DNA of 64,000 nt, taken from NCBI RefSeq assembly GCF_056712565.1, contig NZ_CM160072.1; one strand, given 5' to 3'. Shown piece after piece: positions 27,501-30,500 of this stretch (position 1 is its first letter; each line of letters opens with the position of its first letter). Made by a program: the position numbers.

Positions 27501-30500
27501 ATGCAGCACGGTTCCCGTCAGGTTGATCACCGGACGCAGCGCGCTTTGCGCCTCTTTCGTCAACCGGGCATCGACTTCTTGCGCCCAGTTTTCACACCAC
27601 GCGGGCAGCGTCTGGCTGTCACGAATCACTTCTCGCGCTTCGTCAAGCATCTGACGCAGCAATTCCACCACGCGGGTGTGACCATAAGTATCACGCAAAG
27701 AAAGGAAGGAGCTATCGCGCAATAAGCGATCAATAGCCGGAAGTTGACTATAGAGGGAACGCGTTTCGGTTGTCATAGGAAACCTGGCTGATCAAGGCCC
27801 TCTCACACGGAGAAGGGCGTTTAACATAACCACGGATTGTAACGTGAGATGGGTCAGGAGGACATATCGCGCATCAAGCCTTTGGCGGTTCGGTGCGAGC
27901 AAAACTTTCGCGGCTAAACAGGTTTTCGACCAGTTTGACTAAGTGTGGGCGGTCGACACACCAGCCTGGCGCAACGCGGCGGAAATTGAGATATCCGACG
28001 GCACAGGCAATGGCGATAGTCGCCAGATTGACCGTATCGGTTTTGAGTGTGCCATCGACCAGATATCCTTCCAGCACATCCAGACTGCGGTTGATTTTCT
28101 CACGCTGACGTAACAATTCATCTTCAGACTGCTGCGCCGCCGGACGCGCCTGTTCACGCACCGATACCAGCCCGGCATCCATAATGCCATCCGCCAGCGC
28201 CTCAATTTTGCGCACCCGCAACGACTCCAGCGGATCACGCGGCAACATCGCCGGAGCAACATTCATTAATTCAATATATTCAGCGATGATCGGCGAATCA
28301 AACCAGCATTCGCCCTCTTCGGTCACCAGCACCGGCACTTTTCCTAACGGGTTAAATTGCGCCACGCCGTTATCCGCGTTATAGGGCAGTTCATTAATAA
28401 ATTCGAACGTTATGCCCTTTTCTAACAACAGAATAGAAAGTTTGCGTACAAACGGGCTGGTGTAGCTACCGACGAGTTTCATGCCGAGTCCTTTGTGCGA
28501 GGAAAAATATCAGTATGGCTCAGGCTCGCGCAAAACACAGGTGATACAAGTCTCAATGATCCAAATAAAGATAATGCATCCAACTGGTCATTCTTAGCAG
28601 CACTTTCCGCATCACCGAAACATGGCTGAAATGGTCGGAGTAAACTGCCACCTGGGCGTAGATGCCGTCGGGTAAGGCATCGATATCAGCGTTAGGGTCC
28701 AGTTCAATGGTTCCCAGCACACCGTCCGTGCCGGGCACGACCGTTAATGATTGCAATACCCCCTGCGCCTGATAAGAACCGCCTGGCACGACAGGTAAAA
28801 TACTGGTCAGTTTGCCGTGAAACACCTGCCCAGGTAGCGCGTTAAACACCACTTCCGCATCATCGCCGGGTTTCAGACGTAACAGCGAGTTTTGCCGAAA
28901 TTGGGCGACAATTTGCCGTTTTTGCTCGGGGATGAAGACCATCACCGGACGCAGCGGCAAGGCAGCTGCGTATGTACCTGGGCGGATCAGTACCTGAGTG
29001 ACGTAGCCATTGCTCGGTGCGCGAATGACAGTCTGCTCAAGGTTATATTTTGCTTCAGTAAGTTGCGCTCTTAAGCTCACAATCTGCGATTGCTCGCCGT
29101 TAACCATACTGTCGAGCTGGCTCTGGATCTGCGCCTGCTCCGCCACCGAGCCTTTCACCAGCGCATCCTGCGCGAGGAAATTTTGCCGCGCATCGTCGAT
29201 GTCACGTTCCGAGAACGGATTCACCGCCGCCTGGCTGCCTTTCAGATAACGTTGATAATTTTTAAACAGACGGTCGCGCTCCGCTGAAACCTGGGTGGTG
29301 TTGGCCTGCGCTTCAGTGAGCTGCGCGCGCAGCGTCTTTATATTATGCGTCGCCGTCATCAGGTCTGCCTGAAGCCTGTCAACTCGCGCCTGGTAACGAA
29401 CCGGGTCGAGCTTAAAAAGCACCTCGCCCTTCTGAATAAGCTGATTATTTTTGTCGGTGACTTCAGTAACAATTCCCGTCACCTGTAGCGTGATGGGGAT
29501 CGCTATCACTGCCTTTTGCGCGGTAAAAGTGTAAGGGTGGTTGTAGTTCATCAACAAAATCAAACCACTCACCAGAAACACGCCTCCCAGCGCCGCCGTC
29601 GCCAGCGTCCACTGATTCACCGGAATGCGGAAGATTTTAAAGACCGCCCACGCCAGCGCCACGTAAGTTAAAACAATCAATAGATCCATAATTAGATCTC
29701 CGGAAACGTGGAATAGTCAGTCTTTTTCTCGGCGGCGAGTTGGTGCTCCAGCGGGAAATCCGGTCAGAAAGTGCGGCGATTTCCGCGTCAGTCGTTTTCT
29801 CTTGCGGCGTAACATGCGACTGCATGCCCCAGCCGCGCTCCGGTTGATAGAGCGTCGCCCAGATCCACAGGAACGGCCAGATAACATGCAGGGTAAACAG
29901 GCTTACCCAGCCCGCCGTATGAATAGCGTCGGCATGGGGATGGTTGCGCTTTTTGGCAATCAGATAAGGGATGTCATGTATCGCGATGATTCCATAAAAA
30001 ATCACCAGAAAGACGAAGATCAGCACTCCCAACGCGAAATAGTTTAGAAACATATCTGCCTCGGATTCACGTTTATCAGTGTTGTTTTTTGGCTGGCAGC
30101 CAGAAGGGAGTCAGGCTGATATTTTGACAATAATCCGGGTTCGCGATTCTCGCCATAACACCAAAGAATAATTTAAGAGGTGATGAGTTGCTTAGTTACA
30201 TAACGATTTTATGACGAAGGCATAACATGCTGTAGATCACATCAGGTGAACGCCGTAAGAAAATATCTTGTGATTCAGATCACAAAGATTCAACAAACCA
30301 TCAAAATAAAAATGTGACATAACTCACATTTAAATGCCATTTTTAGCGAAAATCGCCGCCTTGTTGCTTTTTTACACAAGCATTTTGTGATGAACATCAC
30401 GTCAATTACCTCTCTACCCCCTACATTTATGTGACTGATATCACACAAAAGGCCGCCGACTGGACAGTTAACCGATTCAGTGCCAGATTTCGCAGTATCT

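Follow-up and report, generated by a model that had tools for sequence, protein, structure and literature searches.

The yibF-yibH interval is a vacant Rhs site

The 70 bp that separate yibF from yibH in this Escherichia coli strain form a vacant Rhs site, not an Rhs polymorphic-toxin element. We consider it highly probable (about 93%) that the interval is the ancestral Enterobacteriaceae yibH-yibF spacer, never occupied, that RhsA was gained later elsewhere, and that the strain keeps the original state. The window referred to below is the whole stretch of DNA analysed (64,000 nucleotides of contig NZ_CM160072.1, assembly GCF_056712565.1). The site and its two flanking genes are:

27874-28482, minus strand: yibF, 202 aa, glutathione S-transferase-like; left flank of the Rhs locus
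28483-28552, minus strand: yibH-yibF spacer, 70 bp; the unoccupied RhsA site
28553-29689, minus strand: yibH, 378 aa, HlyD-family membrane-fusion adaptor; right flank of the Rhs locus

The neighbourhood reads selB-selA-yibF on one side, with selA and selB downstream of yibF, and yibH-yibI-mtlA on the other. YibF matched the NCBIfam equivalog NF007682 over its full length (E 7e-123) and was 100% identical in protein sequence to K-12 YibF; YibH, an HlyD-type adaptor, was 99.5% identical to its K-12 counterpart. Both gene names were assigned in the annotation of every matching genome. The flanks are the K-12 yibF and yibH orthologues in unchanged orientation, and the window is colinear with K-12 on both sides. 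The sequence-only reading had put the two genes 70 bp apart, and this figure was exact, since the yibF ATG lies at 28480-28482 and the yibH stop codon at 28553-28555.

On the far side of yibH, yibI (29637-30053, minus strand) carries a 1-bp deletion at 29752, where the plus strand changes from CAGCCGGG to CAGCGGG. The gene is frameshifted past residue 101, and the ORF is now 138 aa and overlaps the start of yibH. The variant occurred in 0 of 5,355 matching complete E. coli genomes, including APEC O1-type strains that are otherwise identical. The explanation is either a private mutation or an error in sequencing.

Comparison with K-12 defines two abrupt breakpoints

The sequence-only reading had placed K-12 RhsA between yibF and yibH, with the caveat that it might map elsewhere, and this is where it lies in K-12 ER3413. 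The ER3413 interval contains rhsA (4,134 bp) and yibA, two Rhs fragments with yibG between them, and an Imm57 pseudogene. The first of the orphan pieces is an Rhs core fragment, and the Imm57 immunity gene is frameshifted. The K-12 RhsA element (Vlazny and Hill, 1995, as cited in Poole et al., 2011; PMC3150448), made up of the rhsA-yibA toxin/immunity pair and orphan tips, occupies exactly the position that is vacant in the window, and the window has none of it.

Pairwise comparison showed that identity to K-12 is lost after 28519 and regained at 28552. The alignment that had been proposed for defining the boundaries of the insertion therefore sets them between 28519 and 28520 and between 28551 and 28552, and across these points 8,249 bp in K-12 stand against 32 bp in the window. 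The two parts of the spacer that result are:

28483-28519, minus strand: yibF-proximal 37 bp identical in K-12; holds AAGGA (28489-28493) and GCCATACT (28512-28519)
28520-28551, minus strand: 32-bp stretch without a K-12 counterpart by identity; TCAGGCTCGCGCAAAACACAGGTGATACAAGT on the plus strand

The breaks are abrupt, as identity to K-12 is ~99% in the 250 bp on each side, up to both breakpoints. Apart from a trivial AT palindrome inside yibF, no target-site duplication and no direct or inverted repeat was found in 28380-28680.

We searched the entire 64-kb window for Rhs sequence. A tblastn search with all six K-12 products of the interval gave a best E of 0.27, and blastn with the 8,249-bp K-12 segment gave a best E of 0.086, both at chance level. 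The 64-kb window contains no GC-rich Rhs core, YD repeats, core extension, tip or immunity gene. The sequence-only reading had described a clean empty site without a core or tip remnant. The absence of remnants was borne out by both searches and the site is vacant, but the description does not extend to a simple insertion into an intact target, because 8,249 bp replace 32 bp.

Outgroup spacers point to an ancestral empty site

For outgroups, we scanned one genome per species with a degenerate pattern for the YibF N-terminus, which yielded 120 loci. Where the fetched stretch includes both genes, the yibH-yibF distance was 60-114 bp in ~40 species, belonging to Citrobacter, Kluyvera, Enterobacter, Klebsiella, Raoultella, Leclercia, Lelliottia, Trabulsiella and Atlantibacter, plus Escherichia sp. 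E1V33. In Citrobacter, Kluyvera, Enterobacter, Klebsiella, Raoultella and Leclercia, the genes usually run yibI-yibH-(60-114 bp)-yibF-selA. Colinear spacers of precisely 70 bp were present in Citrobacter werkmanii, Citrobacter sp. On2M and Escherichia sp. E1V33. In an ungapped comparison, the C. werkmanii spacer matched 54 of the 70 bases of the window spacer; within the stretch absent from K-12 (28520-28551), 21 of 32 bases matched, also ungapped (chance P ~1.5e-6).

Because the outgroup spacers are colinear with that of the window, also over the 32 bp absent from K-12, we conclude that the empty site is ancestral and not the scar of a deletion. RhsA is then a later gain, since its deletion could not recreate an outgroup-like spacer. 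In the history that we favour, the ancestral spacer between yibH and yibF would never have been occupied in the lineage of the window, and the K-12 lineage, together with ~72% of sequenced E. coli, would later have gained an 8.2-kb RhsA composite element at this spacer. The parts of the composite are the polymorphic toxin rhsA, the immunity gene yibA, and orphan tips plus the immunity genes that belong to them. It sits between the yibH stop codon and the probable -10 region of yibF, with 32 bp of spacer replaced, as judged by identity.

The reverse history, in which an ancestor carried RhsA and its later deletion left a 70-bp scar, has some precedent: Rhs loci are known to come and go among strains of E. 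coli (Jackson et al., 2009; PMC2935791), and Rhs genes are found at the same site in two Citrobacter genomes. Such a deletion, however, must rebuild every base of a spacer that is colinear with its Citrobacter counterpart and with those of other genera, and the 32 bp needed for this are nowhere near the locus in RhsA-bearing genomes. Moreover, the junction contains no remnant, repeat or filler sequence. We therefore regard secondary loss as very improbable. Restoration of the spacer by recombination with an empty-site donor would give an indistinguishable sequence outcome and is less parsimonious. As some Citrobacter carry Rhs genes here, gene content alone would also be compatible with an older Rhs origin followed by many losses; it is the intact colinear spacer alone that excludes that history.

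The empty junction is common among E. coli and typical of APEC O1-like strains

In a set of 5,426 complete E. coli genomes, a probe consisting of yibF and yibH found both genes in a single contiguous stretch in 1,523. A 91-bp junction probe was fully covered in 1,522 of these 5,426 genomes, mostly at 100% identity. In the remaining genomes, the match halts at probe bases 30 and 63, which correspond to 28519 and 28552 of the window, and all occupied genomes that we sampled have the two breakpoints of K-12. Using the first 3.66 kb of K-12 rhsA as query, we detected an RhsA-type core in 3,903 of the 5,426 genomes, with a median of 6 places each, and none in the other 1,523. Since the totals are equal (1,523 each, compared as totals and not genome by genome), the genomes with the empty site are expected to be those that are free of the core. 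The proposed value of the site for strain typing holds: the empty junction occurs in 28% of complete genomes and its total equals that of the genomes without an RhsA-type core.

Apart from a single base, the 25 kb around the site are 100% identical to those of APEC O1, of several avian O1:K1:H7 strains and of related isolates from humans. The position between yibF and yibH is Rhs locus 10 of Jackson et al. (2009; BMC Genomics 10:584; PMC2935791), who list zero rhs genes for APEC O1, UTI89, CFT073, 536, E2348/69 and SMS-3-5 and infer that locus 10 is younger than the split from those Rhs-free strains. The site in the window has the same flanks as the unoccupied locus 10 of APEC O1, UTI89, CFT073, 536 and E2348/69, likewise without an rhs gene and in the same strain background, and differs in nothing of substance from the unoccupied locus 10 described in that study. 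The strain is a member of the Rhs-free group, of which APEC O1 is typical, and keeps the original state.

These comparisons also bear on the quality of the assembly. Rhs cores are multi-copy repeats of 3.7 kb that can break short-read assemblies, and a repeated Rhs element might in principle have been collapsed or dropped here. Against this, 1,522 complete genomes have the very same junction, the surrounding 25 kb are 100% identical to several independently finished genomes, and a collapse would not create 32 bp homologous to outgroups. The chance of an assembly artefact is negligible.

Other segments of the window differ from K-12

Away from the Rhs site, the window departs from K-12 at several places. 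At 20084-20129, 46 bp stand in place of 4,191 bp in K-12 that contain yiaT, yiaU, yiaV and yiaW. Because yiaV and yiaW (the HlyD/DUF3302 paralogues) are missing there, the strain is without the paralogous pair of yibH/yibI. Between aldB and yiaY, a 1,376-bp segment (21774-23149) corresponds to 8 bp in K-12, and in the identical strain ZJ3920 the annotation places a Fic family protein there. The interval between yibL and lldP (35424-41514) is 6,091 bp long, versus 10 bp in K-12, and matching genomes annotate a gene for a YadA-like trimeric autotransporter adhesin. Near yiaL/yiaM, a 1,115-bp segment (12502-13616) compares with 179 bp in K-12. It adjoins 6.5 kb from yiaM to sgbE (13617-20083) with only 88% identity to K-12, versus ~97% elsewhere; this lower identity hints at a recombinant or divergent allele block. 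At 56978-57038, 61 bp replace the yibB region of K-12 (1,283 bp). The waaL end of the LPS core cluster (59978-64000) gave no megablast match to K-12, a mismatch consistent with a different LPS core type.

The insertion spares a probable yibF -10 element

On the yibF strand, the spacer consists of the yibH stop codon, CACCTGTGTTTTG, CCTGAGCCATACT, a T-rich stretch, AAGGA and the ATG. Three elements in it bear on expression:

28489-28493, minus strand: AAGGA, ribosome-binding site of yibF
28512-28517, minus strand: CATACT hexamer, probable yibF -10; with TG at 28521-28522 it reads TG-N2-CCATACT
28531-28543, minus strand: remnant of the yibH intrinsic terminator (3' arm and U-tract), CACCTGTGTTTTG; the 5' arm is missing

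The CATACT hexamer lies at a near-constant distance from the yibF ATG in 65 distinct loci from many genera of Enterobacteriaceae. It is usually preceded by C, with TG two bases further up. The consensus for the -10 element of sigma-S-dependent promoters, which the conserved motif resembles, is TG-N0-2-C(C/T)ATA(C/A)T. From its sequence and placement, CATACT at 28512-28517 is probably the -10 element of a promoter belonging to yibF itself. In a Salmonella study, the yibF::gfp translational fusion has its upstream end at -31 from the AUG (PMC5137417); by this endpoint, transcription would start a few bases past CATACT. A simple scan of the spacer for the sigma-70 consensus found no promoter and no -35 element. 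As the K-12 breakpoint falls directly upstream of GCCATACT, the insertion spared the motif, while the TG and everything further upstream were replaced.

We considered two other interpretations of this region and rejected both. The first was a conserved RNA structure around CCAUACU that sequesters the Shine-Dalgarno sequence. Enterobacter and Citrobacter sequences fold in this way, but shuffled sequences fold as well as the window spacer does (z 0.3), and a -10 element is the simpler explanation. The second was a genomic-SELEX peak assigned to yibF/rhsA (PMC5493296) as a mark of a promoter in the spacer; the peak, at 3,764,054, falls inside rhsA.

The terminator remnant has complete counterparts in related genera. 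Just past yibH, a full hairpin (GGCAGG...CCTGCC) followed by a T-run is present in Enterobacter, Leclercia, Raoultella and Citrobacter sp. Awk4, and in Citrobacter sp. Awk4 and Enterobacter asburiae the full terminator folds at -36 kcal/mol (z ~-4.6). Escherichia and most Citrobacter keep only the 3' arm and the T-run. No terminator-like site was found in the spacer of the window. Loss of the 5' arm would likely permit some read-through from yibIH into yibF.

The terminator tail also raises the question of where DNA specific to K-12 truly begins. On the yibF strand, the ~22 bases of K-12 next to the shared segment read CTGCCC, a T-run, CCCATCACCAG and GCCATACT, a layout like that of the ancestral terminator tail. 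These ~22 bp next to yibF (CTGGTGATGGGAAAAAGGGCAG on the plus strand) might be a diverged copy of the ancestral spacer (terminator 3' arm and T-run), imported with the element by homologous exchange from another lineage. Foreign DNA would then start nearer yibH, and ~10 bp next to the yibH stop codon would have been displaced, not 32. With GCCATACT as the anchor, the K-12 stretch agrees with E. albertii at 17 of 33 positions (P ~0.008), C. youngae at 16, and Citrobacter Awk4 and Enterobacter at 15, compared with 10 of 33 for the window. The pattern of CTGCC, a T-run, ~10 nt and CCATACT is shared, and BLAST matches extend to 54 bp between K-12 and E. albertii and to 62 bp between K-12 and C. 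youngae. However, the stretch is short and T-rich, so that composition inflates the similarity, and the flanking genes have no raised divergence beside the junction. We therefore see a diverged copy as a real possibility, though not the likelier one. On the breakpoints as judged by identity, which we prefer, the displaced stretch remains 32 bp.

Other cargo at the spacer in related genera

Several of the outgroup loci carry additional DNA next to yibF (coordinates are those of each fetched locus):

Citrobacter sp. Res13-Sevr-PEB04-36 (L082), 132-7542: yibF and yibH enclose vgrG and an Rhs gene of 1,383 aa
C. youngae ATCC 29220 (L035), 6327-10432: Rhs gene 380 bp from yibF
Citrobacter sp. MGH106 (L104), 1067-8254: island between yibF and yibH with sulfatase, PTS EIIC/B, radical-SAM/SPASM maturase, RpiR regulator and aldose epimerase
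E. albertii (L004), 1-838: MOSC-domain gene upstream of yibF in place of yibH

The Rhs protein of Citrobacter sp. Res13 is 67% identical to RhsA over the core. Like K-12 RhsA, the Citrobacter vgrG-rhs modules are located between yibH and the CCATACT of yibF; they are transcribed divergently from yibF. An adjacent vgrG is present in L082 but not beside K-12 RhsA, and the window has neither vgrG nor rhs. At least the first 1.5 kb of the MGH106 island beside yibF share ~78% identity with the DNA that precedes yibF in S. enterica subsp. arizonae (L053), where yibH was not found in the fetched stretch. In most cargo-bearing loci CCATACT keeps its usual distance from yibF; MGH106 and S. arizonae have it at a point further upstream of the ATG.

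These loci hint that the yibH-yibF spacer could be a recurrent integration hotspot across Enterobacteriaceae, with unrelated cargo entering within a few dozen bp, an idea that we offer as speculative and rather doubtful. If true, placement of cargo between the yibH stop codon and CCATACT, with the promoter region of yibF preserved, would suggest either a site-directed mechanism or strong selection on the positions that are tolerated.

Significance

The empty junction is an ordinary, common E. coli polymorphism that has been described before. Our additions are descriptive: the exact breakpoints, the 28% frequency, the polarity given by outgroup spacers, and the -10-like motif of yibF that the insertion spared. 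The polarity points to gain in K-12-type lineages and not to loss in this strain, in agreement with the published inference. For the strain itself, the vacant site means that it is without one contact-dependent competition toxin and its immunity genes, a difference of small importance beyond bookkeeping. For E. coli as a whole, the empty junction is a reliable one-PCR marker of lineages without Rhs toxins of the RhsA/B/C/F type, among them extraintestinal pathogens, represented by APEC O1, ST131 and ATCC 25922.
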